Shown: positions 1-54,515 of the stretch, in pieces | Numbering within the stretch: position 1 is the stretch's first letter | Layout: every line of letters begins with the position of its first letter | Virus record (IMG/VR): IMGVR_UViG_3300018910_000023 | Span: 1 to 54,610 of that record | Strand: one strand, 5' to 3' | DNA: 54,610 nucleotides | From: a virus | Taxonomy: Duplodnaviria; Caudoviricetes | Notes under the pieces: model-generated | Databases searched by the model: none | Told to the model about the DNA's origin: nothing | Seen by the model: the letters and a program-made list of their open reading frames with translations, nothing else | Made by a program: the position numbers and the translations under genes

Positions 1-127
1 TTTGCGCTTGAACCATATTGATTAATCCTTCGCATCCTTTCTTTTGAATACTTTGATTATGCTTGGTCACATTCGGAATGGTGATCAACAGCAGGATGGA
101 GATCACAAGCATGACGACTAACATTTC
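1..127 (-). pseudogene. comGC: Competence major pseudopilin ComGC, 3' fragment (runs off window)
   Basis: Minus strand reads EMLVVMLVISILLLITIPNVTKHNQSIQKKGCEGLINMVQAQ. Confidence 0.93.
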
Positions 128-151
128 AATAAATATGGGTAATAACCCTTA
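123..151. other. Left attachment site (core ATTTC 123-127, phage arm 128-151)
   Basis: Arm aataaatatgggtaataaccctta is a near-perfect inverted copy of the arm at 54462-54486. Confidence 0.9.
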
Positions 152-249
152 AATGATTATGAATCTGATTTCCAGAAAACACACAAAACGTCTAAAGTAT
201 TGAAGAATTTTTGTCGATAATTATAAAAGGATATTTAATGGAGGGAAAA

Positions 250-939
250 ATGAAAAGGTTATTGACATTAATGTTTGTAGTTACGGTATTAACCGCTTGT
301 TCAAACCCAAATAAACAGCCCGAGGAAGAAAAAGCAGTTCATCAAACTAAGACAACATCGAATCAAAAAGAGAAGAAAATTAAAACGCATAAGCTGACTG
401 ATAAAGATAAACGTTTTATTCAGCTTATAAAAGATGGTGAATACGATAAAGTCATTAAAGAAACAAGCGATTTAAGGGACGTCTTTGAAAAGGATTATTA
501 TTTTATTGCATCTGTCTATAAAAAGGAAAAAGAATTAAAAGAAACACATTCAGGCACTTACGATGACTATTCTTACATGAGTGCAATGTTAGATAAAGTT
601 GTTTATATGGATAGCCATGATGATTTACAAGTGCAGCAATTCAAAAAGATGAACAACAAAAGAATGGAATGCGCGAAAAAAGAACAAGACATAGTTAAAG
701 AAGCAGAAAGAAAAGAAGAGGAAAAAAACGAAAAGCTTGACGCTATAAATGAACGAACGGCCAATCCGAAAGAGGTTTCAATTGGTATGACTACTGAAGA
801 AGTGTTAACTGAAGGATGGGGTCGGCCAATTGATATTAACACAACTGTCACAAGTAATGGTAAACGCGAGCAATGGGTCTACAAAGGAAACAAATATCTC
901 TACTTTGAAGACGGTGTATTAACTTCAATTCAATATTAA
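250..939 (+). CDS. Lipoprotein with C-terminal BamE/SmpA-like domain
   Basis: RBS ggaggg before ATG 250; lipobox LTAC; IGMTTEEV..WGRP..EQWVY..YLYFEDG motif. Confidence 0.8.
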   Translation: MKRLLTLMFVVTVLTACSNPNKQPEEEKAVHQTKTTSNQKEKKIKTHKLTDKDKRFIQLIKDGEYDKVIKETSDLRDVFEKDYYFIASVYKKEKELKETHSGTYDDYSYMSAMLDKVVYMDSHDDLQVQQFKKMNNKRMECAKKEQDIVKEAERKEEEKNEKLDAINERTANPKEVSIGMTTEEVLTEGWGRPIDINTTVTSNGKREQWVYKGNKYLYFEDGVLTSIQY

Positions 940-943
940 CAAC

Positions 944-978
944 AAACACTCCCCTATTTCTAAAGGGTGAGTGTTTTT
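944..978 (+). terminator. Intrinsic terminator
   Basis: aaacactc-ccc...ggg-t-gagtgttttt hairpin with T tract. Confidence 0.6.
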
Positions 979-1105
979 AATTTGTTCAAAACAATCTCCT
1001 GCTTTTGCGCAAATGAAAAAATAAAAGATTTGTGAAGAATTTAACGAATTCAAGGAGTTAAACACTCGGAAAAGAATTTTTATAAAAGAAAGGAGTGAAT
1101 TTCGT

Positions 1106-1846
1106 ATGACGGTTGAAGGCTTGTATGAAACTTCGATAAGATCTATGTTCCGCCAAGAAATTTCTATGATGGTTAAATCGTTTTCAGTCGAGAATCAAAA
1201 AAAGCAACTCAAATCTTATCTCACCATGAAGGAGGTTTCGAAAAAAACCGGTTTAGGTCTTTCTACTATAGGTGATTTAATGCGTAGAAGAGCCATGCCT
1301 CATCTTCGAGTCAAAAGCAAAGTTCTTTTTCTTGAAGAAGAGATCAGGCCTACAATTATGCATTACAAAGAATTTGGTTGGACTGATCCTGATGATGAAT
1401 GGGATGTTGCAAAAGCTTTTAAAGACGTTGAAAATTTAAGAAACCCTAAGGAGGAGCCGACCATGATCGAAGAAGCACTTAGAAAAATTATCAGGGATGA
1501 GTTAGAAGTATTTGTCCAAGATATAAAGAATGCGACATCTAAAGAAAATTATATGGGACGCACTAACTTAACGATTAAAGAAGCTGCTAAGTATTTTCGG
1601 ACAAGCCCATCCACAATAACCAATTTAATTCATGAGGAAGGTATGCCTCATATTCGTATGGGAAGTCGCTACATAATTGTCTTAGAAGAAGCTGAAGCTT
1701 TTCTTTGGAGGGAAACTGCAAAAAGATACGCTGATACCGGGAATATTTATTGGACAAGAATTTTAGAACGTATTGATTACGAAGATAAAAAACGAAAAGC
1801 TGCATTTGAAAAAGCAATGTATAACCTTGAAAATTCATTCAAATAA
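1106..1846 (+). CDS. Tandem excisionase-like (HTH_17/MerR-like) DNA-binding protein
   Basis: Two domains: YLTMKEVS..MPHLRV and NLTIKEAA..MPHIRMG. Confidence 0.75.
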   Translation: MTVEGLYETSIRSMFRQEISMMVKSFSVENQKKQLKSYLTMKEVSKKTGLGLSTIGDLMRRRAMPHLRVKSKVLFLEEEIRPTIMHYKEFGWTDPDDEWDVAKAFKDVENLRNPKEEPTMIEEALRKIIRDELEVFVQDIKNATSKENYMGRTNLTIKEAAKYFRTSPSTITNLIHEEGMPHIRMGSRYIIVLEEAEAFLWRETAKRYADTGNIYWTRILERIDYEDKKRKAAFEKAMYNLENSFK

Positions 1847-3362: not shown

Positions 3363-3635
3363 CAAAACCCCTTCTTTCAATTTTTTTGACATGGATAATT
3401 TTATCATTATTTTAGAATTTTTAATATTATTTTCCTTAGTTCATAGTGTAATGTAGGGGGGAGATGATCAGGCATATCTATTTACTGCTATGTAGTGTGA
3501 TGTTTAAATTCACCCAAATCAAATCAAGATATGTCATATATACCAAATAATGATGTTTCTTCTAATAAATCCTTTTAGGTTTGCCTCATTGCATTTATAA
3601 TGATATTGATAGCGAATGATGAGGAGGTATCTAGC

Positions 3636-4493
3636 TTGAAAGATTTTTGGATGTACGAAGATGACGATCCATACACTTTGAAGAAAGTAACAGAGAAAGA
3701 TATTCTGAAAGCTGAAAAAAAGTTAGGTGTAATACTCCCGAAGGAGTATAAAGAGCTTATTCTTCAACAAAATGGTGGATACATCAATTATAATGCTTTC
3801 CCTACTGATCAGCCTACTTCCTGGGCAAAGGATCATATTGAATTTGACTATTTATTAGGCTTAGGAAAAAAAGAAGGAATTCTTGAAAGCCAGTATTTAA
3901 TTAAAGAATGGGGATTGCCTGACAACCTTATTCTAATTCATGGGGATGGCCATACTTGGGTTGCTTTAGACTATAGAGATACAAAAGAAAATCCACCTGT
4001 TCATTACTTTGATTCAGAGCTACAAGAAAATTTTAGATTAGCAGATTCATTCGGGGAATTTCTCTCTAAACTATACACAGATGATTCGGTTGATATTGAT
4101 GATATTGAAAACTTACAGGGAATTAATCCTGAGGACTATGAACTTTCATATATTACACCTGATCATCCAGATGCAATTACAAAAGAAGAAGCTGAAAACA
4201 TCCTAAATAAAAATATAGATATAGAGCTACACAGGGTTACTTTATACCCTATTCAAAGTTTTGAAGATCTAAAATGGCTGCTTACCAAAATAAAAGAAAG
4301 TTCGGCAAATGCCAATCGTGCAACTGCAATAGAACTAGCCAGTGCTTTAGAAACAATCATTTCTTACCATAAAAATTTAACATTTGATAATGAAGAAACA
4401 AGTCTATTGGTTAAGGAAATCGTGGCTACGCTTGAAAAACTGAATGACTCAATTTTAGATATACTCCTTTCACAAATAAAAGATTTTTTTTAA
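3636..4493 (+). CDS. SMI1/KNR4 (SUKH) family immunity protein
   Basis: AEKKLGVILPKEYKELILQQNGG and GDGHTWVALDYR..ADSFGEFL motifs; RBS ggagg before TTG 3636. Confidence 0.88.
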   Translation: MKDFWMYEDDDPYTLKKVTEKDILKAEKKLGVILPKEYKELILQQNGGYINYNAFPTDQPTSWAKDHIEFDYLLGLGKKEGILESQYLIKEWGLPDNLILIHGDGHTWVALDYRDTKENPPVHYFDSELQENFRLADSFGEFLSKLYTDDSVDIDDIENLQGINPEDYELSYITPDHPDAITKEEAENILNKNIDIELHRVTLYPIQSFEDLKWLLTKIKESSANANRATAIELASALETIISYHKNLTFDNEETSLLVKEIVATLEKLNDSILDILLSQIKDFF

Positions 4494-4572
4494 AAAACAA
4501 CATTCGTGTTGTTTTTTTCTATTTTTATAGTATTATGGTTATGTTACCAAATAATACTATAAAGGAGTAATT

Positions 4573-5433
4573 ATGAAGAAAACGAGACAATTTTTATGTG
4601 CTGTTGTCCCCCTTCTGCTTTTGGTTTCATTTATTTTACCGGAATTCGCTAAAGCTGAATCCCCTCATCAAGTCTACTCCACAGAACAAACATCACAGAC
4701 TTCAAACGAAGACACTTCCCTTCCTGAAGATGAGGAATACAATAACTACATAGAGTCTACATATGAAGATTATTCTGACTTTGAGGAATCTAAGTATTAT
4801 GAGGGATGGGAAAACTACCCTGTATACCAGGGTGAACTTGAAGACGATATCACAGATGAAGAGTTAGAAACAGTTTCTGATGACATTTTTCATGATGAAA
4901 GCAATGAAATTATTGAAACAGAACATTCACCAATTCCAGACGACATAGGGAAAAATGAAGACATTGCTCAAGTTCAATATGTATGGCTGATCCCTCCCGC
5001 AACTGCGATTGTTTCAAGGGTTGGCGGTAAACTTTTTGTTAAACAATATTTGAAGAAGACAACCAAAAACATAAGAGTTAAAAACGGAAAACTGGCCAAT
5101 AAGAAACACCCTAAAACCGGTATATTTTTCAATCCAAAGGGCTTTCCAGTCTTCAATTCAAAGTACACTTATACGCTTCCGAAACTTTTAATAAAATCAA
5201 GCAACAAAACTCAATTTAAATACGCAAATGAATCTTTAAGAATTGCAATTAGGTCACCGAAACACGCTAAAAAATTTAATTCAGCACAAAGAGGAGATAT
5301 TATGATGGGCAAGACACCTAGAGGTTATGTTTGGCATCATCACCAAGACACTGGAAAGCTTCAGCTAGTAAATAAAACTATCCATCAAAAAACCGGACAT
5401 ACTGGTGGAAAATCTATATGGGGAAAACTCTAA
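4573..5433 (+). CDS. Secreted HNH/EndoVII (WHH-type) nuclease toxin
   Basis: Sec signal ending AKA; acidic linker; C-terminal GYVWHHHQD..QLV..H..TGHTGG..W. Confidence 0.85.
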   Translation: MKKTRQFLCAVVPLLLLVSFILPEFAKAESPHQVYSTEQTSQTSNEDTSLPEDEEYNNYIESTYEDYSDFEESKYYEGWENYPVYQGELEDDITDEELETVSDDIFHDESNEIIETEHSPIPDDIGKNEDIAQVQYVWLIPPATAIVSRVGGKLFVKQYLKKTTKNIRVKNGKLANKKHPKTGIFFNPKGFPVFNSKYTYTLPKLLIKSSNKTQFKYANESLRIAIRSPKHAKKFNSAQRGDIMMGKTPRGYVWHHHQDTGKLQLVNKTIHQKTGHTGGKSIWGKL

Positions 5434-5472: not shown

Positions 5473-6546
5473 TCAAAATGATTCCAATTTCGCTTTCGTT
5501 TTCGGTCCGTAAATTCCGTCGGCAGACAGCCCGTGCATCATCTGAAACCGTTTGACCGCGTTCGCCGTTTTCGGCCCGTAATAGCCATCTATGCCGTTAT
5601 TCTTCGCCCCTTTATCTGGATAGAAATAGAGTGCAGCTAAAGCCTCCTGAATCTGCCGGACGGCCGTCCCTTTCATCAGTGGGCTTTTTACCTTATAGAT
5701 GCCAGACGGCAGCGGGTAGGATGATTTTTTGCCGCTTGAGGAAGGCTTTTTCTTTTTCGCTTCAATAGCTGCAAGCGCCTTTTCGGTAGCCGGTCCGTAA
5801 ATTCCATCCACCACGATACCCGCTTTCTTTTGCAGAGCTTTGACGGCCTGCACTGTTTCATTTCCGTAAGACCCATCAGCCCCGTATTTCGGCAGTGAGA
5901 AGCCAGCGGCAATCAAACGTTTCTGCAGCGACTTGACCTTGGAACCGGACGACCCTTTTTTCAGGATAGTCCCTGTGGATTTGCTTGACTGGCTCGTGGG
6001 TGATGTTGTCTTTGATACAGTTTTATTTCCAAGCAGAGCATCAACTTTTTTCCTGAATGCCACCAACTGGCTGGAATCGCTCACCCACGGTGCCGGACAA
6101 ATTTTGTTTGTTACATCGTAATGGCGGACGATTTTGTTAGTAGAAAGACCGTAACGCTTGCACAGGTCGGCAACCAATTCAGCGGCATTCTGAACCGTTT
6201 CACTGTGAATCCTGCCATCTTTTTCGACACACATTTCAACGCTGATTGACTTTGTGTTGGCGTTCGGTTTAAGAAAACTCACATAACAGCGATTTTTATC
6301 ATGTGCATGGTACGCGACTTCATTTTCAGGAATGATGTGCTGCGCTTCTTTACGGTCCACAAAATAATGAGCTGAAGCTTTGCGTTTAATGGCTATACAT
6401 GTGCCATTGAAGTAATCCCTCTCATTCAATGCAGAAGCGCCCGGCGTCGCCGTATAGTGCATAACAATCCCTTTCACTCCCGCCAACTTCAGCCCTGGCC
6501 GGGTATATTGATTGACTTTCACAAAGTTTTTCACGACTTTAACCAT
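5473..6546 (-). CDS. cwlL: Endolysin, N-acetylmuramoyl-L-alanine amidase (Amidase_2 + two PG-binding domains)
   Basis: IVMHYT, SAHYFVD, VRHYDV..CP motifs; DGIYGP repeats; resembles B. licheniformis CwlL. Confidence 0.92.
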   Translation of the reverse strand: MVKVVKNFVKVNQYTRPGLKLAGVKGIVMHYTATPGASALNERDYFNGTCIAIKRKASAHYFVDRKEAQHIIPENEVAYHAHDKNRCYVSFLKPNANTKSISVEMCVEKDGRIHSETVQNAAELVADLCKRYGLSTNKIVRHYDVTNKICPAPWVSDSSQLVAFRKKVDALLGNKTVSKTTSPTSQSSKSTGTILKKGSSGSKVKSLQKRLIAAGFSLPKYGADGSYGNETVQAVKALQKKAGIVVDGIYGPATEKALAAIEAKKKKPSSSGKKSSYPLPSGIYKVKSPLMKGTAVRQIQEALAALYFYPDKGAKNNGIDGYYGPKTANAVKRFQMMHGLSADGIYGPKTKAKLESF

Positions 6547-6597
6547 TTGAACCCCTCCTATTTTGTTTTAAATAAAAAAGGCTGCCAGACGGCAACC

Positions 6598-6861
6598 TCA
6601 TTTTGTTAATCCTTTTTGTTTTAACACTTCTTTTTGCTGTTTACCTTTACCGGTGACATAGTTGTTTTTAAACCAAGCGACCAACGTCGTGACGATTGTA
6701 AAAATCGTAGAGCAAGTTAAATACAAAGCGTCGGCCAGCGTATTGACCTGGTCCTCACTGATCGGCAAAGCTGCCTTTCCAAACATGATCAATGTCTGGT
6801 TTACCAATGCAATAAAAAGAAGCACCGTCCGGACGACCGTGCCTTTATCAAAGTTTTTCAT
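6598..6861 (-). CDS. xhlB: SPP1-family holin
   Basis: [16 protein letters not shown]...AWFKNNYVT; next to endolysin. Confidence 0.9.
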
Positions 6862-6876
6862 ATCGTGTTTTCCTCC

Positions 6877-7170
6877 TTATTTCTGCAGTAGATTATAAAA
6901 AACAGCGATTGCGCCGCCAATGATACCGGTGCTGACCGCTGTAATGATCGCTCCAGTGATGCTGCGCTTGATCCAAGTTGTGTTTTCCTCGATCTTGTTC
7001 AGCTTTTCATTGATAGAAATGATTTGCTGATCATGACGGTCAGTTGTTCTTTCGAGAGTAGTAATCCGCTGATCTTGTGTTTTTTGATCTGCTTTAATTT
7101 CTGCGATTTCTTTTTGTAAAACATCATAATCATTCGGTTGCGTCATGTCCCCTAATCCTCCTGTTCTCAC
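6877..7170 (-). CDS. xhlA: XhlA-family holin-associated protein
   Basis: Coiled coil, NTTWIKR, C-terminal TM segment; alternative start at MTQP. Confidence 0.88.
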   Translation of the reverse strand: MRTGGLGDMTQPNDYDVLQKEIAEIKADQKTQDQRITTLERTTDRHDQQIISINEKLNKIEENTTWIKRSITGAIITAVSTGIIGGAIAVFYNLLQK

Positions 7171-7227: not shown

Positions 7228-8061
7228 TTACAAGAAATGAGTAACCACAAGGTTTTTAATTTTCACGTCTGTTTCTCCGTTATTGGTCAACATAAGTCGC
7301 GGAGAGGCAGCTAATAAATCAACCTTCTGAGCGTCCCGATCATTATTTTCTAATACAATGACATCTTCATAACCCTTCAGGGTATAGTTGCTTGTTCCCG
7401 GGATGATGTAAGTCATGCGAACACTCAGATTCGTCTTTTCATAAAGATAAATCGCAAGTCCAAGCTGATGACCTGCCGCATCAATATTTAGATAGATAGA
7501 CTCTCCTGCTTTGATGACCTGTTCTTCTAAAAAGCTTTCTGAAGTAATAGTTTTCAGCGCTTGTACAGGGAGACCATCAGCTGGAATGTCTAAAGAAGGA
7601 GCCTCGAATCCTCCTGAAACCCGGACATCCTGTTCACCTGATCCAAGTGATTGATATAGGGCAAAATCAGACTGTTCCAAGTTGCCGTTGACATATCGAA
7701 AACGATAATACCTTTTGGATAGATAAACCCATCCTGTGTCACCTAACTCATGTTCTGCTACATCGATAGATTCCGCTGTTGACCAAGAATTCCCGTCGTC
7801 ACTTTCTTCAACATATAATGACCCCGCTTTATCTGCAAAAGCATAGCCTCTAACCTTAGAAATGAGTACATCTCCCAGCCGGTCCTGACCATATTGGTTA
7901 TAAACCTCTGTAGCTTTAAGAGGCAGATTGGTCAACAGCTCTGCACCGCCGCTGACATCCATATTAGGAACTGTAAAATCCGTATCCCCCTCCCGAAATG
8001 GTTTCACCGCACCTGGTCTTGAATCAGCATCCAACGGAAACAAAAAATTGTATTTAGCCAA
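7228..8061 (-). CDS. xepA: XepA-like lytic protein
   Basis: KRYYRFRYVNG motif; position before xhlA as in PBSX. Confidence 0.8.
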   Translation of the reverse strand: MAKYNFLFPLDADSRPGAVKPFREGDTDFTVPNMDVSGGAELLTNLPLKATEVYNQYGQDRLGDVLISKVRGYAFADKAGSLYVEESDDGNSWSTAESIDVAEHELGDTGWVYLSKRYYRFRYVNGNLEQSDFALYQSLGSGEQDVRVSGGFEAPSLDIPADGLPVQALKTITSESFLEEQVIKAGESIYLNIDAAGHQLGLAIYLYEKTNLSVRMTYIIPGTSNYTLKGYEDVIVLENNDRDAQKVDLLAASPRLMLTNNGETDVKIKNLVVTHFL

Positions 8062-8161
8062 TGTTCATCCTCCTCTGTTTTTGTATATCTCTTTAATCTG
8101 GCTAATCGAACGGATGAAACACGCGCCATAGATCACCCCCTAAAAGGCAAAATAAAAAAGC

Positions 8162-8344
8162 CTATATGACGGCTTCCGGCGGGTATTCTTCATTAAAGAT
8201 TTCTTTGTACTGCTCAGGAGACACAAGCCTATTATCTACCCCATCTTTGAAGTCTTCTGAGGTACAGTCTTTATAATAGAGTGCTTGTTTCACCATGTCT
8301 GTTGTGGCCCAATTATAGTAAAGTGCCAACACCCAAAAGTTCAT
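8162..8344 (-). CDS. xkdX: XkdX family protein
   Basis: MNFWVLALYYNWAT..EQYKEI. Confidence 0.85.
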   Translation of the reverse strand: MNFWVLALYYNWATTDMVKQALYYKDCTSEDFKDGVDNRLVSPEQYKEIFNEEYPPEAVI

Positions 8345-8670
8345 TGCTGCTCCTCCCCTTTCAATTGAAGCGATTGAATCTTAAGCTTTGCCAGTTCCTG
8401 CCCCATAAGTTTGTATGACTCCTCGAGGGCTTTTCGAGCCAGCCTCTCCTCTGTCAGCTGGCGGCCAAGTGACTCTGTTAAGCTTGGCGGCGTATAGAGC
8501 TGACTCTTTTTTGATTCTTCCCACCACAACTGCAACTCCTCTTCCGACGGAATAGGCGTCCTTAAATTCCATTCTTCAATATAAGACCCATTTCCATCGT
8601 TTCTTAAGACAAAATCCTTTTTGGGAATGGCATCAGGATACTTGTACATGATGGCATCATATAAGATCAT
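8341..8670 (-). CDS. xkdW: XkdW family tail fibre assembly protein
   Basis: MILYDAIMYKYP..DFVLRNDGNGSYIEEWN. Confidence 0.85.
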   Translation of the reverse strand: MILYDAIMYKYPDAIPKKDFVLRNDGNGSYIEEWNLRTPIPSEEELQLWWEESKKSQLYTPPSLTESLGRQLTEERLARKALEESYKLMGQELAKLKIQSLQLKGEEQQ

Positions 8671-8681
8671 AAGCTCGCCTC

Positions 8682-9785
8682 CTAAATGTTTCGGTAATTC
8701 CGACCGCCTAATTCCAAAATATCGAAATAATTAAGAACCCCATTGCTGTCCATGATATAACGGGTCTTGGATCCGGAATAACCCGCATACACGTAAATCT
8801 CGATATAATCTCCTTCATCAAGTGGAACGTTTACTGTGCCTGTCACCGTCGCGTGAAATTCTGTTGAATCGCTGTTATCTTTTGGAGATGGAATGATGAA
8901 GCGATTCATCAATTTATTTTTAGCTCCGTTCTTATAAACATAAAGCTCAAAGTTTGAATATTGGAGTGAGTTTTCAATATACAGACTTGCGCCTACCAGG
9001 TACATACCGGAATGACTGGCCTTAAATCTGTTGTTTTTCGTATCAAACAATTTATGGCTGTCTTTGATGATTCGGTTGAATTTGATTTTCTGGAGTTCCC
9101 CTCTTATCAAAGCTTGTCTGCCCGTTGTCCCTATGTTCGCATGGGCAAAACCAGATATTTTTTCCCATTGGGTCCAGCCAGACTCATTCCACCAGTGCCG
9201 AATCCATGTCCCCGTATTATAGTAATAATCACCGGTTTCATTTGCGGTCCCATAAAAGTATTGAGTAAAACGATAGTTCGAACGCTTTTCGTTTTTCACA
9301 AATCCATAGCTGAGTGGATAACCAGTTTTATTGCCCTGGCCAATATCCATTAGTGTAATGCCGAGAGGATATTCACTTCCTGCAGTCCGGGCATCTTGTA
9401 TCGCCTCTGAATCTGGTAAGACAGTCAATTTCTCATTGGTAAACGTTTGATCCGCGTATGTTTTCGCATTCTCTTCGGCGCGATCTGCTTTTTCTTGGGC
9501 AGCACTCAGCGTTTCCTTGGCATTCCATTCTGCTCTTTCTTCTGCTGTAATATGGATCGTTTCATCGCCAACATGCCGATTAAATTCAGCTTTTGAAGCT
9601 TGCTGCACATCCTCTACATTTCCAAGCCCGATTTGGTCCTTTGTCGTGCCATGCGGATTATTCAGATCATTTTTATGGGCAGCCAAATCGGTGTGCGCCT
9701 CTTTGATGCCTTTTTCCCAGCGGTTCACGTCATCTTCAGTTATCGGATCATCCGGGAGCCAGTCCGTCTTTTCTTTATAAGCCAT
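8682..9785 (-). CDS. xkdV: Tail fibre / receptor-binding protein (XkdV/YqcC-like)
   Basis: KTDW..D..NRWEKGI N-terminus, NPH.TTK.QIGLGNV motif, beta-rich C1q-like C-terminus. Confidence 0.75.
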   Translation of the reverse strand: MAYKEKTDWLPDDPITEDDVNRWEKGIKEAHTDLAAHKNDLNNPHGTTKDQIGLGNVEDVQQASKAEFNRHVGDETIHITAEERAEWNAKETLSAAQEKADRAEENAKTYADQTFTNEKLTVLPDSEAIQDARTAGSEYPLGITLMDIGQGNKTGYPLSYGFVKNEKRSNYRFTQYFYGTANETGDYYYNTGTWIRHWWNESGWTQWEKISGFAHANIGTTGRQALIRGELQKIKFNRIIKDSHKLFDTKNNRFKASHSGMYLVGASLYIENSLQYSNFELYVYKNGAKNKLMNRFIIPSPKDNSDSTEFHATVTGTVNVPLDEGDYIEIYVYAGYSGSKTRYIMDSNGVLNYFDILELGGRNYRNI

Positions 9786-10061
9786 TTATTCCACCACCTC
9801 AAATGTAAATCGGAAATCGAGCGTGCGGTTGGTACTGACATCCAGGTCAGGACTTCGTTCTGTAATCACGTGGTCTTGATCATCAATGATTTTGACACTT
9901 TCAATGTGACTGACATCTTCCTCACGTTTAGTCAGTACAGTGACAGTCGTGCCATTGATCGTGATGTCGGCAATCTCAGTTTCTTTCCCATTCAACAATA
10001 CCTTTTTGATCCTGCTTTTCAGGTCGGTCGCCACGCGCTCCCTGTAGTGTTTTGTGATCAT
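9786..10061 (-). CDS. Small baseplate/tail protein
   Basis: Translationally coupled ORF between xkdU and tail fibre. Confidence 0.75.
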
Positions 10062-43372: not shown

Positions 43373-43378
43373 TAACCT

Positions 43379-43480: not shown

Positions 43481-43674
43481 CAATCTCCCGCCTCGCTTAA
43501 CATTTTACGGCCAAGATCACATTTCACTTTTATGTGAAGCCGCTCAATATCTGCCAGTGATAACTCATAGAGCTGTCGTCCGTCACCTGATTCATATTGA
43601 CCGTATCGTATCAGTTCATCTATCAAATTATTATGCCGATCGCTGACGGGGTCTACTGCTGATTGATCAATCAA
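43480..43674 (-). CDS. FbpA-like small protein
   Basis: LI..LI..G.Y...GRQLYELSL..IE. Confidence 0.75.
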   Translation of the reverse strand: MIDQSAVDPVSDRHNNLIDELIRYGQYESGDGRQLYELSLADIERLHIKVKCDLGRKMLSEAGD

Positions 43675-43690
43675 AATTATCTATCCCTTC

Positions 43691-44995: not shown

Positions 44996-45251
44996 TGCGT
45001 TCCCACTCTTTCTGTTTTGCTAAAAATTCGTTTTTCTCTGGCTGTCTGACTTTAATCTCAGCAATAGATGGTGGAAATCGATTATTTAAAATGTGCTCGT
45101 CCACTTTCGCGAGAACCGGCTCATATGGCAATTTGGTAAGATGATCAATCCAGAGTTCAATTCGCTTTTTACCAACAACACCGGTTAAATCAAATTTTGT
45201 ATAAGCAGCAGCTATTCTTTGCAGGATCTCCATTGCCTGGTTCACTTCCAC
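44970..45251 (-). CDS. Helicase loader/inhibitor (G39P-like)
   Basis: W...L....Y.......H......FPPSIAEI. Confidence 0.82.
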   Translation of the reverse strand: MEVNQAMEILQRIAAAYTKFDLTGVVGKKRIELWIDHLTKLPYEPVLAKVDEHILNNRFPPSIAEIKVRQPEKNEFLAKQKEWERNAKYSPKR

Positions 45252-45253
45252 GT

Positions 45254-46066
45254 TTATCCCCCCATCTGAATGCCGTGCTCTCTGGCGTATTCGGCCAATG
45301 CATCGAAGCTGTTTTGTTTTTTCTTATTAGGGAACTCTTTGACATTCGATTGCTGACGCTGAAGCTTGGCCCATCGATCAAGAATGCCTTTTTCACAGTA
45401 AGCAAAAGATTTGATGGTGTCGGCACGATGTTTCGGCTTGTACTCATCGAATATTTCATCAATCCATTTCAAGATATATTCCAAAGGTATTTTGTCTTTA
45501 AGAAGTCGATTGATCGACTGAGCATCCATAGGCGATAAAAACAAGCTACCTTTCCGCTGCAGAAATTTGTTTTCAATTTGTTGAAAAGCTAAGAGTTTCT
45601 CTTCCTCTTCTTCTCTTCTTAAATTCTTTAATTCTTGTTTTTGTTCCGCGATCGTTCCGTGATCGTTCTGCGGTCGTTTCGTTAAAGGTTCATTATCCGT
45701 TTCGTGAAACGATTCATCTGTGTGGTTAACACCTTGATACAATTGATATTTAACGATGGTAAACAGCGTTCCACTATCCGTTTCGCTAACGGTGATCATT
45801 CCATTTTTCACGAGTTTTTTCACAGAACGTAAAATGGTGCTTTTTGAGACTTTTTTAAACGCCCGTCCTTCTTTAAATTCAAGGTCGTCACATAATTTTG
45901 AATAGGATCTTATATACTGACCTTTTTTCAGCTCGATACCGTTAATTTTTATTCCGTCCTGATGACTTGCCTTTAGCAGAAGTAATGTGAACAACCGAAA
46001 TGTCGTTACATCACTCCATATCTCATGATCAACTATCTTCCGGTGCAGCTTAATCCATCCCTGCAC
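45254..46066 (-). CDS. Phage replication initiator (DnaD-like C-terminus)
   Basis: GWIKLHRKI N-terminus; Y..GIL..W motif. Confidence 0.85.
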   Translation of the reverse strand: MQGWIKLHRKIVDHEIWSDVTTFRLFTLLLLKASHQDGIKINGIELKKGQYIRSYSKLCDDLEFKEGRAFKKVSKSTILRSVKKLVKNGMITVSETDSGTLFTIVKYQLYQGVNHTDESFHETDNEPLTKRPQNDHGTIAEQKQELKNLRREEEEEKLLAFQQIENKFLQRKGSLFLSPMDAQSINRLLKDKIPLEYILKWIDEIFDEYKPKHRADTIKSFAYCEKGILDRWAKLQRQQSNVKEFPNKKKQNSFDALAEYAREHGIQMGG

Positions 46067-46067
46067 G

Positions 46068-46256
46068 TCAATCTCCTCCTTTCTGTTTACAAAGAGCTGT
46101 CATGCCGCTGATGCGGACTAAATATAAATTAGGTTCACTTGCCCTTAAGTATCCCTCAACATAGGCGCGGAACAATTCAGCCCGGTTAGGGGCCCCTTCC
46201 GTCATCCACTTGTAACAGAAGGGAATTGTAACCTTAATCATCGAATGGGAACTCAT
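46068..46256 (-). CDS. Hypothetical protein
   Basis: Coupled ORF between recT and the initiator. Confidence 0.7.
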   Translation of the reverse strand: MSSHSMIKVTIPFCYKWMTEGAPNRAELFRAYVEGYLRASEPNLYLVRISGMTALCKQKGGD

Positions 46257-47154
46257 CCTGTTTGATGTCTACAGGTTCGCCATCGAATGGATCGGCGGTG
46301 TCCTGCACGCTCGTTTTTTCTTGATTATCTTTTTGTGTCTGTTCTGGCTCAGGATCATCGATAACCGGGCTATCCCCACTTATAAGAAAATTTTCATCAT
46401 CATAGACAGACCGTGCTTCAGCCGTTATATCCTTCCTGACTGTTTCATCCTGAGTAACTTGTTTTTGAATCTCTATGCTGATCGGCAGGTACTTCCACAT
46501 ACGCCGAATTACTGTTTTCTTTGCCATTTCTTCATAATCGGTTTTCCATGGGCCGTTATCTTTCGATTTACTCCGTTTACGTACATTTTCAATATCCTGC
46601 TTACTGAACACCTCGAATTGATACCCGCCGTCTTTAAAATGAGCGACGGCATAAACATGAGTCATTTCCCCTTTTTGTCCTGTAGCAGGTTTATGAACCA
46701 ATTTAGGGTGCAGTCCCAATTCATAATCGAATGTATCCGCTTCATGGACAGTGTGGGCGTATATGCTTTGGATATGTCCTGAGCGCCTGGCAAGATCAAT
46801 CATGCCTTTGTAACCAATTATGAACTGCACTTCTCGTCGTTTTTCTTTGTTGTTCCAAAACGGGACAAAGTAGCAATGCCCTACTAATCCGGGTTCAAGC
46901 CCTAACTGTGCAGATTGCATAACTGCACCAAGTAATGAACCTGGGGAACATTCTTGCAAAGCAGGATTGGTTCTTATAGTGGTTAATGCAATACGTGTGA
47001 TTCGTTCCGGCGTAATATGTTCCGGCAAAGCTTTTTGAAGCTCCGGCTTCATATCTTCCAGATAATCCGCAATTGTTCTGGGTTTCTCCGTTTCTTTTTG
47101 AACGGCATTAGCTTTATTCGCTAACTGATTACGAATGTCTGCGTTTTTAGCCAT
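46234..47154 (-). CDS. recT: RecT single-strand annealing protein (YqaK-like)
   Basis: LGLEP..YFVPF..QFIIGYKG..EMAKKTVIR. Confidence 0.94.
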   Translation of the reverse strand: MAKNADIRNQLANKANAVQKETEKPRTIADYLEDMKPELQKALPEHITPERITRIALTTIRTNPALQECSPGSLLGAVMQSAQLGLEPGLVGHCYFVPFWNNKEKRREVQFIIGYKGMIDLARRSGHIQSIYAHTVHEADTFDYELGLHPKLVHKPATGQKGEMTHVYAVAHFKDGGYQFEVFSKQDIENVRKRSKSKDNGPWKTDYEEMAKKTVIRRMWKYLPISIEIQKQVTQDETVRKDITAEARSVYDDENFLISGDSPVIDDPEPEQTQKDNQEKTSVQDTADPFDGEPVDIKQDEFPFDD

Positions 47155-48097
47155 TTGCTTTAATCTCCTTTAAACTGAATCTTCTATAAGGCTTAGGTTT
47201 ATTGAATTTCGCAAAGAGCTCAGGGTATTCAGCAGCAAACGCCTTTGTATCAAAACGATTGGCCGTGACAGTTTTCCAAATGACTCGGACATTGCTAGCA
47301 TTCCCGGTCTCATACTCCCCGAGCATCCCCTTTAATTGGTTTTCTGCTTCTTTCAGCTGTTCTTTGGCTTTTTTCTCTTCGACCTTGGCCTCTTTATAGC
47401 GCTCAATCAACTCATTTGCGGCAAGAGGAAGCTCTTTCTCAGCCTCAAAGCCAACAGGATACATATGAGTTAAAAGCTCTGTGGAAGCCTCAGAACCATC
47501 AAACATAGGTGGAATCTCATTCAGGACATGGTTTTCCCAAAATTCCTTTTCAACCTGAATGAGGTATTTGATAAGCTCTTCGTCCCGTTCTACCTTCTTA
47601 TAAACGAATTTGTTTCCGCCGATTAAAACAGCAATCCACCAAGCTTTAAAACCTGTCACCGCCATATAATGCTGGCATTGGACCAGGTAAGCGTCCGGAA
47701 CTTCCTCACCATCCCACTCGTTCTTGAGGTATTCTGACGCCGTTTTACATTCTAGACCCACTTGTTCACCAACAATGAGCCTGTCAACATTGGCAAGCAT
47801 AAAAGGATAATCAGGATGCTGCAGAATGGCCTTGCGACGGCGTACCTTTTTACCCGTCCGCTTTGAAAACTCTCGGGCAACCGTCTCCTCGAGAATATTG
47901 CCCCAATATGCTGCCTCGCCTGATGAGTCCTCTTTCGGAGCCTGCCCAACCTTATCCAGATAGACAGACATTGATGTTTTCCACTTACTCAGCCCGGCAA
48001 TGGCCGCGGCGTCAGATCCACCGATACCCGCTCGCCGCGCTTCAAGCCATTGTTCCTCTGTCATGTTCTCTGTTGGCATGTAAACCTGTGCCAGCAT
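47147..48097 (-). CDS. yqaJ: YqaJ lambda-type exonuclease
   Basis: WLE.RR.GIGGSD, ANVD, LECKT, QCQHYM. Confidence 0.94.
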   Translation of the reverse strand: MLAQVYMPTENMTEEQWLEARRAGIGGSDAAAIAGLSKWKTSMSVYLDKVGQAPKEDSSGEAAYWGNILEETVAREFSKRTGKKVRRRKAILQHPDYPFMLANVDRLIVGEQVGLECKTASEYLKNEWDGEEVPDAYLVQCQHYMAVTGFKAWWIAVLIGGNKFVYKKVERDEELIKYLIQVEKEFWENHVLNEIPPMFDGSEASTELLTHMYPVGFEAEKELPLAANELIERYKEAKVEEKKAKEQLKEAENQLKGMLGEYETGNASNVRVIWKTVTANRFDTKAFAAEYPELFAKFNKPKPYRRFSLKEIKANG

Positions 48098-48276
48098 CAA
48101 ACATCCACCCTTCCACGGAAGCTATTCAACTGAAGGTAACGGTCAAATTGTTCCTTTGTATCGAACTGGAAAGCAGGTTTTCGATCTTTCACAGTGATTA
48201 CACCCTTTACTTCTGATAAACGCCATTGATCAAATCGATCTGAACTAAAACTAATGATTCTATATGGTTTTGCCAT
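48097..48276 (-). CDS. Small hypothetical protein (59 aa), absent from ORF track
   Basis: RBS aaggagg; MAKPYRIISFSSDRFDQWRLSEVKG...; TGATG coupling to yqaJ. Confidence 0.7.
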   Translation of the reverse strand: MAKPYRIISFSSDRFDQWRLSEVKGVITVKDRKPAFQFDTKEQFDRYLQLNSFRGRVDV

Positions 48277-50223: not shown

Positions 50224-50580
50224 TTCACAATTCGAGAACTTTTTATTCAAAAAAAAGTTTGTTTATCTCTACATCTAACGCTTTAGCAACAGTGGGCAAC
50301 TTCTCGGCATTAAGACTTTTCTTACCGGATTCAATCTCACTAATAATGGAAGAGTGTTTATACCCCAACTCAATAGCAAGATAAAACTGAGTTAGCCCTT
50401 TTTCTTTTCTTAGCTCTCTTATTCGTGAACCCAAGATCTCCTTCAAATTATCACCCCCAAAGTTCTCGTTTCGTGAATTCAATTTCATTATAAGTTCACA
50501 AAACGAGAATGTAAAGATTTTTATTCTCGTTTTGTGACATTTTTTTCTCGAATTGTGATTATTTTTTCTCAAATAGAGAA
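50224..50580. promoter_or_regulatory. Six 15-bp repressor operators TTCWCR-N3-BGWGAH
   Basis: Copies at 50224, 50463, 50495, 50524, 50545 and 50566 (last more divergent). Confidence 0.8.
50243..50446 (-). CDS. Cro-like XRE repressor
   Basis: IRELRKEKGLTQ..LA..ISEIESG; divergent from CI; TTG start with RBS ggggtg. Confidence 0.88.
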   Translation of the reverse strand: MKEILGSRIRELRKEKGLTQFYLAIELGYKHSSIISEIESGKKSLNAEKLPTVAKALDVEINKLFFE

Positions 50581-50651: not shown

Positions 50652-50999
50652 ATGAATTATGCAGATAGATTGAAATTTTTACGTGAAAAAGCGGGGTTAA
50701 CACAAAAATTTGTTGCCCAAAAAATCGGTGTGAAAAATAACACGTTGTCTAGTTATGAATCAGGAAAACGGCAACCTGATTATGAAACCACTAAAAAATT
50801 GGCAGATCTTTATGATGTTTCAATTGATTTTCTCTTAACAGGAAAAGATCATGAGGGAACTAACGATGATATGTGGAAGGAACTTTTAAATCCTAAAACT
50901 CAGTTGCTCTTTAAGGATCTAAAAGACGCACCAGAAGAAAAAATTGATGAGTTAATTCAGTTCTGGGAGTTCATAAAAAACCGCGATAAAAATAACTAA
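50652..50999 (+). CDS. CI/ImmR-like XRE prophage repressor
   Basis: RLKFLRE..GLTQ..LSSYESGKRQPD..LAD.Y.VS.DFL. Confidence 0.92.
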   Translation: MNYADRLKFLREKAGLTQKFVAQKIGVKNNTLSSYESGKRQPDYETTKKLADLYDVSIDFLLTGKDHEGTNDDMWKELLNPKTQLLFKDLKDAPEEKIDELIQFWEFIKNRDKNN

Positions 51000-51154
51000 T
51001 AATGATATATTACTTTGTTTTATCCATAGAGCTTTAGAGTGTGAACTTTTTTAAATTTCCGCTCTGAATATAGACAATATCCTTTCATTGGTTTATTATG
51101 TATATCGTTTACACCTTTTACTAAGCCTTTGGGCTTTTCTTTTTATCTTCAATA

Positions 51155-51168
51155 CGAACATATATTCC
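51155..51168. promoter_or_regulatory. Putative LexA (Cheo) box
   Basis: CGAACATATATTCC vs consensus CGAACRNRYGTTYC. Confidence 0.6.
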
Positions 51169-51193
51169 TTTAGTTTTAAGGAGGCAACTACAG

Positions 51194-51679
51194 ATGAAAA
51201 CTATAGTCCCCCATAATACACATCTCGAGGATTGGATTGAGACATTTTACAAGGAAATGAAAATTTCAAATCCCCATGAATTGGATCTCTTAGATATCTC
51301 GCATCGATTAGGATTGAAAGTGGAATTTCTAAACATAGGTAGTCGTTATTATGATGGGATGATCATTCTTGATAACCGACTTTCACCTCAAGAACAGTGG
51401 CAAGATTTTGGACATGAGCTTTGTCACGCTTTAAGGCATGAGGGAAACCAATTGACTATGTCTCCACTCTTCGCTCAACTGCAAGAGATGCAAGCTAAAA
51501 CATTTGCTTATAAATTTTGTATTCCTTCATTTATGCTGATGAAATTAGACTTTTCAAAGCCATACATAGAAACAGCAAAATTAATTGCATCTCATTTTAA
51601 TGTTACATATGAATTTGCTGCAAAAAGAGTAGTTCAATTTAAACCACTACATGTATTAATAAAACAGAAAAAGGGTTGA
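51194..51679 (+). CDS. ImmA/IrrE-family metalloprotease antirepressor
   Basis: HELCH..H; QE.QA..FA..F.IP. Confidence 0.92.
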   Translation: MKTIVPHNTHLEDWIETFYKEMKISNPHELDLLDISHRLGLKVEFLNIGSRYYDGMIILDNRLSPQEQWQDFGHELCHALRHEGNQLTMSPLFAQLQEMQAKTFAYKFCIPSFMLMKLDFSKPYIETAKLIASHFNVTYEFAAKRVVQFKPLHVLIKQKKG

Positions 51680-51688
51680 TAATTAATT

Positions 51689-52885
51689 ATGTTTGAATTG
51701 CTAAAAAAACTTATGGAAACGAATTTTTGGACACTTATCGTCTCAATTGCTAAAGTCATTTCGACTTTAACCTTCTTGTTAACTTCATTTGGTATGTTTT
51801 TCTGGGGGATAGGCTATACCTTTTTGTACGGATATTACTTTGGGGGAGGAGTTACAGACTTTTCTTCAATCTTGGAAATGGTAATTAAAATTGTGCCATT
51901 TAACTTTTACTCTGTCATGATAATCAGTTTATTTGTATTATGTACCGTTTTCTTTTTATTTAACATTGGCTTATTTATTAAGGCAGGCAAGATACTCAAT
52001 ATTGCTTTATCTTTTATATTTTTTGTAGTATTGCATGTGGTTTTAACTTCGATTTTTATTGGTGATGTTACTTTTCAAAACCTATTATATTTTTCAATTT
52101 TATGGGTTATTCCTATATATATTGTTATCGTAACCTTTTATTTTTATAGAACAATTAAATCTTCTAAATTCTTCTATATGTTTTCAGGGACATTAACTGC
52201 ATTTATTTTATGTGCCATTTTTTTGTATAACCTTGCCCTAGACGAAACGATACTTTATATGATAACCGTATGTATGTGTTTTTTATTAAGTACCATCTAT
52301 TCATATCTCTCTCCAAAAAAATTAATTATTAAATTCCTTATATCATTACCATATTTTTTTATAGGTAGTGTTGTAGTTAAGGTATTTTTAGAGAAATTTA
52401 TAAATGTACACTCCAAAGGTCTTTTTATTTTTCTATATGCACTTTCATTTATTTTAAGCTTTATATACAGTTATTTATTGTTCCCTGAAGATCGCTCATC
52501 TGCAAATACTAAGTTAAACGACAACAATAATAATAACAACGATGATAATGAAAATTTAAGAGTTGAAGTAATGGTCCGAATCACCAAATTTTTAGCACCA
52601 TTGGAACAGCCACTTCGCAATATGATCATTATTTTAGCGATAATAATTTTTTTAGTTTTTACTCCACTGGTATCATCGCTATCTGGAAAAACAATAAGAG
52701 TTGTAACTCCAAACGATGCATTTAAATATGAAAAAATTAATACTCCTAGTCTTCCCGAAAAAAAAGTCGAGGGCATCTTGGTTTCTGAACAAAACAATAT
52801 TCTATATATTTCATCAAAGAATGATTTTAAATTAATTAGAATCAAAGATGAGAGTTTTAAAACTGAAGAGATAAAATCTAAATAA
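51689..52885 (+). CDS. Polytopic membrane protein
   Basis: About 9-10 hydrophobic segments; very AT-rich; between immA and the integrase. Confidence 0.8.
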   Translation: MFELLKKLMETNFWTLIVSIAKVISTLTFLLTSFGMFFWGIGYTFLYGYYFGGGVTDFSSILEMVIKIVPFNFYSVMIISLFVLCTVFFLFNIGLFIKAGKILNIALSFIFFVVLHVVLTSIFIGDVTFQNLLYFSILWVIPIYIVIVTFYFYRTIKSSKFFYMFSGTLTAFILCAIFLYNLALDETILYMITVCMCFLLSTIYSYLSPKKLIIKFLISLPYFFIGSVVVKVFLEKFINVHSKGLFIFLYALSFILSFIYSYLLFPEDRSSANTKLNDNNNNNNDDNENLRVEVMVRITKFLAPLEQPLRNMIIILAIIIFLVFTPLVSSLSGKTIRVVTPNDAFKYEKINTPSLPEKKVEGILVSEQNNILYISSKNDFKLIRIKDESFKTEEIKSK

Positions 52886-52928
52886 TTTTAACTTAAGAAT
52901 GGATTTAACATTTTGAAAGGACTGATTC

Positions 52929-54464
52929 TTGTTGAGAGCAGCAATATACATACGTGTCTCAACTAAACTTCAAGAAGAAAAGTATTCTTTACGAGCACAG
53001 ACCACTGAATTACGTAGATATGTAGAACAACAAAGATGGCGATTGGTGGATGAATTTCAAGATATCGAATCTGGCGGTAAGCTTCACAAAAAGGGCTTAA
53101 ATGCCCTTCTCGACATTGTTGAAGAAGGTAAAATTGATATCGTTGTCTGCATTGATCAAGATCGACTTTCTCGTTTGGATACAATATCATGGGAATATTT
53201 AAAGTCTACTCTTCGTGAAAACAAAGTGAAAATCGCTGAACCTGGAACTATAGTAGATCTAGATGATGAAGATCAAGAATTTGTTAGTGACATTAAAAAT
53301 TTAATTGCCAAGAGAGAAAAGAAAGCTCTTGTAAAAAGAATGATGCGTGGAAAACGCCAAAGAATGCGTGAAGGCAAAGGCTGGGGCCAGGCTCCATATG
53401 AATATTATTATGATAAGAAGGAAGAACAATATAAATTAAAAAAAGAATGGGCTTGGGTAATTCCATTCATTGATCGATTATACCTGGAAGAACAACTAGG
53501 AATGCGAAGCATCACAGATGAACTTAATAAAATCTCAAAAACGCCTTCCGGTATTATGTGGAATGAGCATTTAGTACATACTAGGCTGACCACAAAAGCA
53601 TATCATGGAGTTCAAGAAAAAACATTTGCGAATGGTGAAGTGATTGCTGCAGAGAATATCTTTCCCAAGTTAAGAACCAAAGAAACTTGGGAGAAAATTC
53701 AGATTGAGCGAAATAAAAGAGGAAATCAATATAAAGTTACCAGCAGGAAGAGAAATGATCTTCACCTATTAAGAAGAACATATTTTGTATGCGGTGAATG
53801 TGGAAGAAAAATTAGTCTTGCTGCTCACGGAACCAAAGATTCTCCTCGTTATTATCTAAAGCATGGCCGAAAATTGAGATTAGCTGATGGTTCAGTTTGT
53901 GATGTGAGTATAAATACAGTTAGAGTTGAGGGTAACATCATACAATCAATTAAAGATATTGTCACAAGCAAAGAATTAGCAAAACAATACGTAAATCTTG
54001 AAAATGAAAAGGAAGAAATTACTCAACTTGAACAAAACATAAAAAACAATGAACAAATCATCCAGAAGCACACCACCAAAAATGAAAAGCTGATTGATTT
54101 ATACTTGGACAATCATCTAACAAAGGATCAATTAAATAAGAAACAGCTTGAAATCAAGAACATAACAGAAAATCTTCAAACACAACTTAAGAGAGATAAA
54201 GCAAAGCTTGAAACATTGAAAAGTGATTCGTGGAGTTACGATTTTCTTAGCGAACTTTTCGAATCAATTAATTTTTTTGATAGTGATTTTTCTCCTCTCG
54301 AAAGAGCTATGCTAATGGGAAAAATCTTTCCTGAAGGTATTGTTTATAGAGACCATATCATATTAAAAGCAAACGTGGGAGGCTTAAACTTTGATGTGAA
54401 AGTGTTAGTTAATGAAGACCCCTTCCCCTGGCATTATTCCAAAAGTAACTCAAAACAAAAATAA
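52929..54464 (+). CDS. Large serine recombinase (integrase)
   Basis: YIRVST catalytic Ser, DRLSR, recombinase domain, CGECG Zn ribbon, coiled coil. Confidence 0.96.
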   Translation: MLRAAIYIRVSTKLQEEKYSLRAQTTELRRYVEQQRWRLVDEFQDIESGGKLHKKGLNALLDIVEEGKIDIVVCIDQDRLSRLDTISWEYLKSTLRENKVKIAEPGTIVDLDDEDQEFVSDIKNLIAKREKKALVKRMMRGKRQRMREGKGWGQAPYEYYYDKKEEQYKLKKEWAWVIPFIDRLYLEEQLGMRSITDELNKISKTPSGIMWNEHLVHTRLTTKAYHGVQEKTFANGEVIAAENIFPKLRTKETWEKIQIERNKRGNQYKVTSRKRNDLHLLRRTYFVCGECGRKISLAAHGTKDSPRYYLKHGRKLRLADGSVCDVSINTVRVEGNIIQSIKDIVTSKELAKQYVNLENEKEEITQLEQNIKNNEQIIQKHTTKNEKLIDLYLDNHLTKDQLNKKQLEIKNITENLQTQLKRDKAKLETLKSDSWSYDFLSELFESINFFDSDFSPLERAMLMGKIFPEGIVYRDHIILKANVGGLNFDVKVLVNEDPFPWHYSKSNSKQK

Positions 54465-54488
54465 GGGGTTATTACCCCTATTTATTTC
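54462..54488. other. Right attachment site (phage arm 54462-54486, core ATTTC 54484-54488)
   Basis: Inverted copy of the left arm; abuts the comGC 5' part. Confidence 0.9.
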
Positions 54489-54515
54489 TATCAGTGTAAA
54501 TCCCTTTTCATTCAC
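54487..54515 (-). pseudogene. comGC: ComGC 5' fragment (prepilin leader)
   Basis: RBS aaggagg; GTG start; MNEKGFTLIE type IV prepilin motif. Confidence 0.93.

Follow-up and report, generated by a model that had tools for sequence, protein, structure and literature searches.

What happens to a competence gene when a prophage settles inside it, and could the phage give the gene back? This question is raised by IMG/VR virus record IMGVR_UViG_3300018910_000023, the whole of which (54,610 bases, referred to below as the window) was analysed here. Host DNA makes up only the outermost 127 and 124 bases of the window, and these carry the two parts of a split comGC. The element between them is very probably a temperate, apparently intact myovirus related to skin and PBSX, integrated in comGC by its own large serine integrase. 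The features at the two junctions are as follows.

1–127, minus strand: 3' part of comGC from the split Glu codon onward, assigned by translation and by alignment with the intact comGC of relatives; the window begins inside the gene.
105–148: attL, consisting of the host arm, the central TC (126–127) and the phage arm AATAAATATGGGTAATAACCC.
128–54486: prophage body, approximately 54.36 kb, a skin/PBSX-like myovirus according to Pfam and PHROGs.
52929–54464, plus strand: large serine integrase (int) of 511 amino acids, with Resolvase and Recombinase domains.
54450–54515, minus strand: 5' part of comGC (host part 54515–54487) reading on into phage DNA, with a truncated product of 21 amino acids.
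54464–54479, both strands: terminator-like hairpin overlapping the left arm of attP.
54466–54510: attR, consisting of the phage arm GGGTTATTACCCCTATTTATT, the central TC (54487–54488) and the host arm.
54529–54610, minus strand: 3' end of comGB (...LPMYQMMNQL, stop at 54529–54531), read by eye; a full T2SSF gene occupies this place in B. haynesii.

Translation of the minus strand from 54515 to 54450 gives VNEKGFTLIEINRGNNPLFLF and then a stop, that is, the first nine codons of comGC and a GA, followed by phage DNA. The same strand from 127 to 2 translates to EMLVVMLVISILLLITIPNVTKHNQSIQKKGCEGLINMVQAQ. The insertion point is the Glu codon of the prepilin motif GFTLIE, at its GA on the coding strand. 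There are 29 nucleotides from the start codon through the GA (54515–54487), and host base 125 completes the codon GAA, so that the two pieces are in frame. Rejoined, they give nine codons, the split GAA and 87 further codons, or 97 amino acids, the full 3' piece of 87 residues being taken from the B. haynesii genome; the intact orthologues of four related species have 97–98. A sequence-only reading of this DNA had proposed that a prophage splits comGC and that precise excision at the central GA restores an intact prepilin. Both proposals stand, on the basis of the in-frame halves, the gene content of the element and the alignment to the intact orthologues. The positions and sequences on which that reading relied are also as it gave them, apart from the start codon, which is a GTG at 54515 and not an ATG (the orthologues begin at the same position with ATG or TTG). 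Its placing of the crossover is borne out by the further evidence of attP symmetry.

The attachment sites have only a five-base core in common, ATTTC (123–127 and 54484–54488), and there are no long direct repeats. When the DNA is aligned with the intact comGC of the four related species, attL matches up to ATTTC and attR matches from ATTTC onward. With a core of this length, identity alone does not fix the crossover dinucleotide, which is instead fixed by the symmetry of attP. In the rebuilt attP, the inverted arms pair at 20 of 21 positions around the central TC (126–127 / 54487–54488), while six other centres, shifted by one to four bases, gave between 3 and 9 pairs out of 21. The symmetric attP of the sequence-only reading is thus confirmed. 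The host arms of attB pair at 6 of 21 positions only. A short near-palindromic attP, an attB with little symmetry and a two-base crossover constitute the expected att anatomy of a serine integrase.

The insertion separates the comG promoter from the remainder of comGC, and from the genes as far as comGG, by 54 kb. The first phage element met by a comG transcript is the hairpin with its T run (54479–54464 on the minus strand), and the same hairpin closes the int transcript on the plus strand. Precise excision rebuilds comGC in silico, and an empty attB of the predicted sequence exists, as described below.

The integrase itself appears to be complete. PF00239 is found at residues 4–150 (E 1.6e-23), and the catalytic Ser11, together with R9 and V10, is invariant across 12 homologues and aligns with the catalytic region of TP901-1 integrase. 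PF07508 (Recombinase) is also present. No zinc-ribbon family was found past E 0.001; C288, C291 and C324 are invariant in the alignment, and a K/E-rich stretch at 350–430 aligns with the coiled-coil region of TP901-1. Identity to TP901-1 integrase is 24% over 456 residues, and to every integrase in the phage collection it is below 30%. A special kinship with TP901-1 was considered and is rejected at the level of BLAST, where TP901-1 (55 bits) scores below Javan180 (82), Geobacillus E2 (71) and A118 (57). No match in the phage collection was obtained by megablast with the integrase end.

Closer relatives are found elsewhere. Proteins 50–64% identical to the integrase occur in many Bacillaceae genera, and NCBI holds a 94% identical protein named from B. 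sonorensis. Of 401 evenly sampled Bacillales species genomes, eight contain relatives at E ≤ 1e-60, and five of these eight (B. haynesii and four others, the latter with integrases 53–60% identical) have a split GFT[LM]IE straight after the integrase stop. In all five, a TC lies within about 30–70 nucleotides of the stop, and after it ...GFT[LM]IE and the start codon can be read in reverse complement. Three of the five have a comGB-type gene alongside; in the other two this gene is on the correct strand, 2.7 kb and 8.3 kb away. ImmA stands upstream of int in five relatives, the Xre-ImmA-int operon being conserved. Two more of the eight relatives are truncated or interrupted integrases, and the last is discussed below. 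Among the 91 genomes of the GTDB family to which the host belongs, only the B. haynesii integrase and a 46% identical protein of 603 amino acids were found, the latter lying in a different gene.

It is worth adding that in the two genomes with a displaced comGB-type gene the intervening DNA may represent either a further insertion or a rearrangement of the com locus. In G223:C3 (approximately 10760–13490) the 2.7-kb gap holds a GGDEF-EAL gene, and in G237:C1 (approximately 2560790–2569000) the split prepilin start and the comGB-type gene are 8.3 kb apart.

A profile scan of IMG/VR recovered 28 integrase loci, ten of which have any DNA past the integrase stop. These ten comprise two near-identical junctions, two free attP sites, two splits further downstream in comGC, and four without a prepilin. 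Three IMG/VR records have integrases 94–98% identical to that of the window, and two of them show the same junction. Two virus contigs, with integrases 55% and 61% identical, carry an un-integrated symmetrical attP with the centre ..TTAT[TC] TC AATAA... The class of integrases with 603 or 607 residues (43–48% identical) was tried as a further clade using the FTLIE site and was discarded, its members G440/L122 and L134 lying in another gene. In two other members of this longer class (L145 and L146; integrases 43–44% identical, with a C-terminal helix-turn-helix extension) comGC is split about 13 codons downstream of FTLIE, within the codons of the transmembrane helix, and comGB is visible in the L146 flank.

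A relative of the whole element is found in Bacillus haynesii. A scan of genome contigs with the integrase gave a single match, of 98% identity, at a contig end in B. haynesii NRRL B-41327, where it is followed by the same attR; the attL side is on another contig and is 99% identical over 400 nucleotides. Identity between the two prophages is 99% in the first 1.7 kb, 95% in the tail genes, 92% in the early genes and 96% in int, and the cargo genes have been replaced. A mosaic relative at the same site points to a circulating, recombining phage. The B. haynesii comG locus has comGB and comGA on one side of the insertion, and the 3' part of comGC, comGD, comGF and comGG on the other; the position of comGE is occupied by an open frame with no family match. 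The same genome holds a second, PBSX-like element (G001:C63, approximately 221500–254900), which shares 70–79% identity with portions of the window's tail, lysis and toxin regions.

The occurrence of the site in nature was followed in Logan contigs from three biocrust metagenome runs (X1–X3) and one isolate run (X4), aligned to the B. haynesii attR locus. At the att site, X1 and X2 each show the end of a phage-side contig and the start of a host-side one, X3 shows the end of a phage-side contig, and in the isolate a contig runs straight through. The predicted empty attB is found in one contig of X2, in which the 25 letters GGAGATGACAAGCATGACGACTAAC, the same as those of the attL host arm, run straight into the ATTTC of the attR host arm. 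The window may itself derive from X1 and X2. No attP form of the phage was seen in the contigs of X1–X4, which is uninformative about excision, since contigs drop rare variants. A loose contig end in X1 (L002:2250) was considered as an excision junction, and is neither attP nor attB. Contig depth is greater on the host side than on the integrase side in X1–X3, this depth not being readable as a fraction of cells. In the host flank at L002, approximately 5480–5560, each of the four runs has very high contig depth and numerous short contigs that break off. These loose ends look tRNA-like, and probably mark a multi-copy tRNA gene near the comG operon.

The open reading frames (ORFs) within the prophage were annotated using Pfam and PHROGs, over 59 and 39 ORFs. 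The gene map is as follows.

250–939, plus strand: lipoprotein-like ORF beside attL, with a signal peptide ending in LTAC and a weak match to a lipoprotein PHROG.
1106–1846, plus strand: protein with HTH_3 and excisionase-type HTH_17 domains, a weak candidate for a directionality factor.
3600–4493, plus strand: cargo, SUKH/SMI1 immunity-like protein (Pfam).
4573–5433, plus strand: cargo, protein with a colicin-DNase/WHH nuclease domain (Pfam).
5473–7170, minus strand: lysis cassette of an amidase with PG-binding domains, an SPP1-type holin and XhlA (Pfam).
7228–23626, minus strand: contractile tail and baseplate, including XkdW, baseplate J, YqbQ and an XkdN chaperone (Pfam, PHROGs).
14059–19311, minus strand: tape measure, 1750 amino acids (Pfam, PHROGs).
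21088–21531, minus strand: tail tube (Pfam, PHROGs).
21533–22933, minus strand: tail sheath (Pfam, PHROGs).
23616–34101, minus strand: head and packaging region, including an XkdF protease and a Mu-F-like protein (Pfam).
25289–26224, minus strand: capsid (Pfam).
30398–31936, minus strand: portal (Pfam).
31940–33235, minus strand: TerL (Pfam; comparison with the phage collection).
33232–34101, minus strand: TerS (Pfam).
35361–35855, minus strand: unannotated ORF downstream of the LXG toxin, which may be the immunity gene of the toxin.
35868–37487, minus strand: cargo, LXG/PT-TG/HNH polymorphic toxin (Pfam).
37755–38864, plus strand: Rap phosphatase-family protein, 369 amino acids (Pfam).
38861–38989, plus strand: secreted pre-peptide (phr) of 42 amino acids, overlapping rap, with a signal sequence.
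39584–40801: protein with a PIN_8 (PIN-like) domain, 405 amino acids, between the early and late regions.
41870–48100, minus strand: replication and recombination, with RusA, DnaB helicase, DnaD-like loader, RecT and YqaJ exonuclease (Pfam, PHROGs).
50243–50572, minus strand: Cro-like helix-turn-helix regulator, the first gene of the divergent early operon (Pfam, PHROGs).
50652–52885, plus strand: lysogeny operon, running on to int (50652–54464) and facing the Cro-like gene and early operon.
50652–50999, plus strand: Xre repressor (Pfam, PHROGs).
51194–51679, plus strand: ImmA/IrrE metalloprotease (Pfam, PHROGs).
51689–52885, plus strand: ORF of 398 amino acids with no function assigned and no Pfam or PHROG match.

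The modules for lysogeny, replication and recombination, packaging, head, tail and lysis are complete, no broken gene was noticed, and the CheckV completeness on the record is 100. A tRNA scan of the window found no tRNA gene. Virion, lysis and early genes of the Xkd, Yqb and Yqa families place the element in the skin/PBSX lineage: XkdW, the XkdN-type chaperone, the XkdF protease, YqbQ, YqbF, DUF3599, DUF3199, XhlA and YqaJ all match past the Pfam cut-offs, and a match to YqaH falls below threshold. Among the terminases of the phage collection, the TerL of the defective B. pumilus phage PBP180 comes closest, with 76.6% identity.

Some of the genes invite brief comment. The rap-phr cassette is on the opposite strand from its neighbours, and its combination with an Xre/ImmA module recalls the control of ICEBs1 by RapI-PhrI; alternatively, a phage Rap could damp host signalling through ComA or Spo0F. 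The two cargo loci, at 35361–37487 and 3600–5433, are in the style of interbacterial toxins, and both are replaced in the B. haynesii copy. The 398-residue ORF between immA and int is not conserved in the related loci searched and may be a moron expressed in the lysogen, while the PIN_8 protein (39584–40801) may be a defence or nuclease moron.

It could be asked whether an element of this ancestry is still a phage at all, or is a domesticated remnant of the skin/PBSX type locked in comGC, with the gene permanently broken. In favour of a remnant, PBSX, skin and PBP180, which are its nearest relatives with a name, are all defective; none of the genes was recognised as a directionality factor; and in the B. 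haynesii copy a TGA trims the integrase by a few C-terminal residues. The window itself argues otherwise, with a full-length integrase ORF and its conserved catalytic residues, two intact att sites with arms symmetrical at all but one position, and every module in place. Moreover, relatives exist as un-integrated attP forms, and an empty attB is present in the same metagenome. We therefore regard a dead remnant as very unlikely, and prefer the view that the phage of the window is a live-looking relative of the defective skin element.

On this basis, a mechanism can be proposed. The integrase would act on a short conserved attB in comGC, exchanging strands at the TC of the GFTLIE Glu codon. The N-terminal halves of the intact ComGC proteins of the four related species are nearly identical, and the comGC site is nearly invariant across the Bacilli, which would make it a dependable landing pad. 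In the integrated state the major competence pseudopilin would be reduced to a stub of 21 residues, and comGD to comGG would be severed from their promoter by 54 kb of DNA that begins with a terminator. Together, the pilin stub and the loss of the downstream genes imply that lysogens should lack the DNA-uptake pilus and be non-transformable. ComGC is described as essential for DNA uptake in a 2025 review. Excision would need the integrase and a directionality factor. In ICEBs1 and phi105-type elements, a RecA or Rap signal leads to cleavage of the repressor by a protease. To judge from the type of control module, excision in the phage of the window would most likely take place only when DNA damage or lytic induction has led to inactivation of Xre by way of the ImmA-type protease. 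It would be exact and would restore comGC, in a cell that is by then either committed to lysis or cured. Croucher et al. (2016) hypothesise that knocking out transformation may protect a prophage from deletion by incoming DNA. The same benefit may apply to the prophage described here.

Several observations weigh against this account, and are collected here. The most immediate concerns the directionality factor: none was recognised in the prophage. The HTH_17 ORF at 1106–1846 was tried and rejected as a candidate, since neither L126 nor L130 has it conserved next to attP; none of the 13 related loci contains a match to the left-end ORFs. The closest terminase belongs to a defective PBSX-like element, so that the activity of the prophage is not guaranteed. 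One full-length relative of the integrase, that of G361 (54% identity), has no prepilin beside it. The empty attB in X2 may reflect a non-lysogenic strain instead of excision. Loss of transformability and inducibility are both predictions from sequence, and the host may not be naturally transformable at all.

The sequence-only reading had also suggested that the element either blocks transformation or acts as a switch based on active lysogeny. The first half of this suggestion agrees with the standard reading of the known comGC and comYC prophages, while the second is unsupported by the sequence. A switch would require that the phage excise reversibly and without lysis on a host cue, such as the K-state or sporulation, restoring comGC in a subpopulation, and that it then re-integrate or stay as an episome, as is reported for Listeria phi10403S in comK. 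We think this improbable, even though it has some attractions. Precise restoration of comGC is possible, and serine integrases drive the known switches of skin, SPbeta and A118/phi10403S. A restored comGC could also be useful to the host: degradation of the other com genes had been named as an observation that would tell against a switch, and in the related B. haynesii lysogen all 11 further com genes or frames that were checked are open, namely the rest of the comG operon and, free of stops, comK, comEC, dprA, coiA and the gene for prepilin peptidase (comEA, comFA, ssbB and the ComQXPA/srf layer lay outside the check). The Bacillus K-state raises RecA, and competent B. subtilis reportedly induces its prophages selectively (Yasbin 1975), in which case attB could rise during competence.

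The evidence from the control regions points the other way. A ComK-box scan of the whole 54.6-kb window gave no site with one mismatch or fewer. At two mismatches there are five sites, against 0.6 expected, at 20387, 26693/4, 29130 and 35793. All five are inside structural or cargo genes, with none near int or the lysogeny regulators, and we read them as irrelevant. The scan thus gave no sign of int expression dependent on a host cue, sporulation-sigma promoters being outside it, and int lies within the repressor operon. The terminator-like hairpin at the junction would block read-through from the comG promoter, and the control module is of the SOS-type Xre/ImmA kind. Competent cells, furthermore, are not terminal, which means that a switch would need re-integration or episomal maintenance, and nothing was found for either. 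There is also a precedent in phiBM6001.3, the one comGC prophage for which this has been tested. Its excision restores comGC in approximately 3% of cells, a figure that mitomycin C raises about tenfold, and the strain nevertheless stays non-transformable. The phage might nevertheless excise preferentially in cells entering competence, a fraction of them without a full lytic cycle. We give this little credence, although if true it would make the prophage a conditional, phage-controlled gate on transformation, and a case of active lysogeny at a pilin gene. The simpler block of transformation by a temperate phage is therefore preferred.

With the phage of the window, the known class of comGC prophages gains a new host family, the Bacillaceae, and a new integrase lineage; TP901-1 and the pneumococcal and macrococcal phages were already known at this site. 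Like these members of the class, the phage of the window lies inside the comGC frame of the comG operon, at the orthologous position in the prepilin motif. As far as the accessible text of the 2025 review and of Croucher et al. (2016) goes, comYC/comGC prophages are listed for Streptococcus and Lactococcus, and for Bacillus the disrupted genes are comFA and radC, not comGC; nor was a report of a prophage in comGC of Bacillus or other Bacillaceae found in the open-access literature. The pattern of mobile elements knocking out competence now reaches this family, and the same prepilin-motif dinucleotide serves as a landing site from Lactococcus to Bacillus. Some industrial strains of the B. licheniformis/haynesii/sonorensis group are hard to transform, for which a prophage in comGC would be a simple, checkable and curable reason. 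In addition, the window supplies raw material for genome-engineering tools, in the form of naturally occurring attP and attB sites for a serine integrase not yet characterised.

A close parallel is offered by Lactococcus phage TP901-1 and its streptococcal relatives, with attB in comGC/comYC; TP901-1 is reported to insert within comGC of L. lactis. Its sequence record has an attP (...CGTTTATTTCAATTAAGGTAAC...) beside int. IMG/VR contains 79 loci with TP901-1-family integrases, 28 of them with at least 60 nucleotides after the stop, and ten of these 28 informative loci have host junctions of the form ...KAFTL[IV]E|phage, broken at the same TC; most of the others are free attP sites. The crossover position in L. 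lactis comGC itself is presumably the same, the check having been made on the phage record and its relatives. TP901-1 and the phage of the window thus share a large serine integrase at the prophage edge, a terminator inside an attP arm, insertion in comGC, a crossover TC in the Glu codon of (K)AFTL[IV]E, and a similar attP centre (..TTTATT TC AAT.. in TP901-1). They differ in that TP901-1 belongs to the P335-type siphoviruses, has about 38 kb and comes from another host family, whereas the window holds a 54-kb myovirus of the skin/PBSX lineage, and in the low identity of their integrases noted above. No family-level homology to the known comGC integrases was found, and a separate serine-integrase lineage thus appears to use the same dinucleotide of the same codon, through either convergence or very old common descent.

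A second group comprises the pneumococcal phages PPH100, phiBM6001.3 and 670-6B, in comYC/cglC. The PPH100 phages are described as having serine integrases and the attB ACCAACATCTCCACCAA, which is the reverse complement of LVEMLV codons. As in the window, attB is near the 5' end of comGC. Excision restores the coding sequence, and these insertions are interpreted as anti-transformation. The phage type and host are different, and excision has been measured there, whereas the window is known from its sequence. In Macrococcus, the att site of phiMC1 in comGC is reported as CATTTCAATTAAAGT; this is the same ATTTC core in TLIEM codons. The likeness of phiMC1/phiMCCL2, a siphovirus of Staphylococcaceae, to the phage of the window is thus one of att site. 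At least two unrelated serine-integrase lineages, in four bacterial families, together with a third lineage about 13 codons downstream, may have converged on the competence prepilin gene. If so, the convergence would argue that competence itself is targeted, and not only that the sequence is conserved.

The remaining known systems resemble the phage of the window in other respects. In Listeria, A118 and phi10403S are also serine-integrase prophages that split a competence gene, comK, and restore it by precise excision. Their target, however, is a regulator, regulated non-lytic excision is reported there from experiment, and the A118 integrase matches that of the window in the N-terminal catalytic domain only (31% over 133 residues). 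The prophages of the B. cereus group in comFA, as described by Croucher et al. (2016), likewise disrupt a DNA-uptake gene in Bacillus by means of a serine-type integrase, but the gene, the host group and the integrase lineage, which is A118-like, are different. Finally, skin (in sigK) and SPbeta (in spsM) are placed in a host gene by a serine integrase, a likeness in the kind of enzyme and of arrangement. Skin and PBSX share with the phage of the window the lineage of their virion and early genes (Yqa, Yqb, Xkd and XhlA), an LXG toxin and a rap gene. The difference lies in the cell where the split gene is needed: skin and SPbeta excise in a terminal mother cell under the control of sporulation sigma factors, and the genes that they split function in sporulation, whereas comGC acts in competent cells that remain viable.

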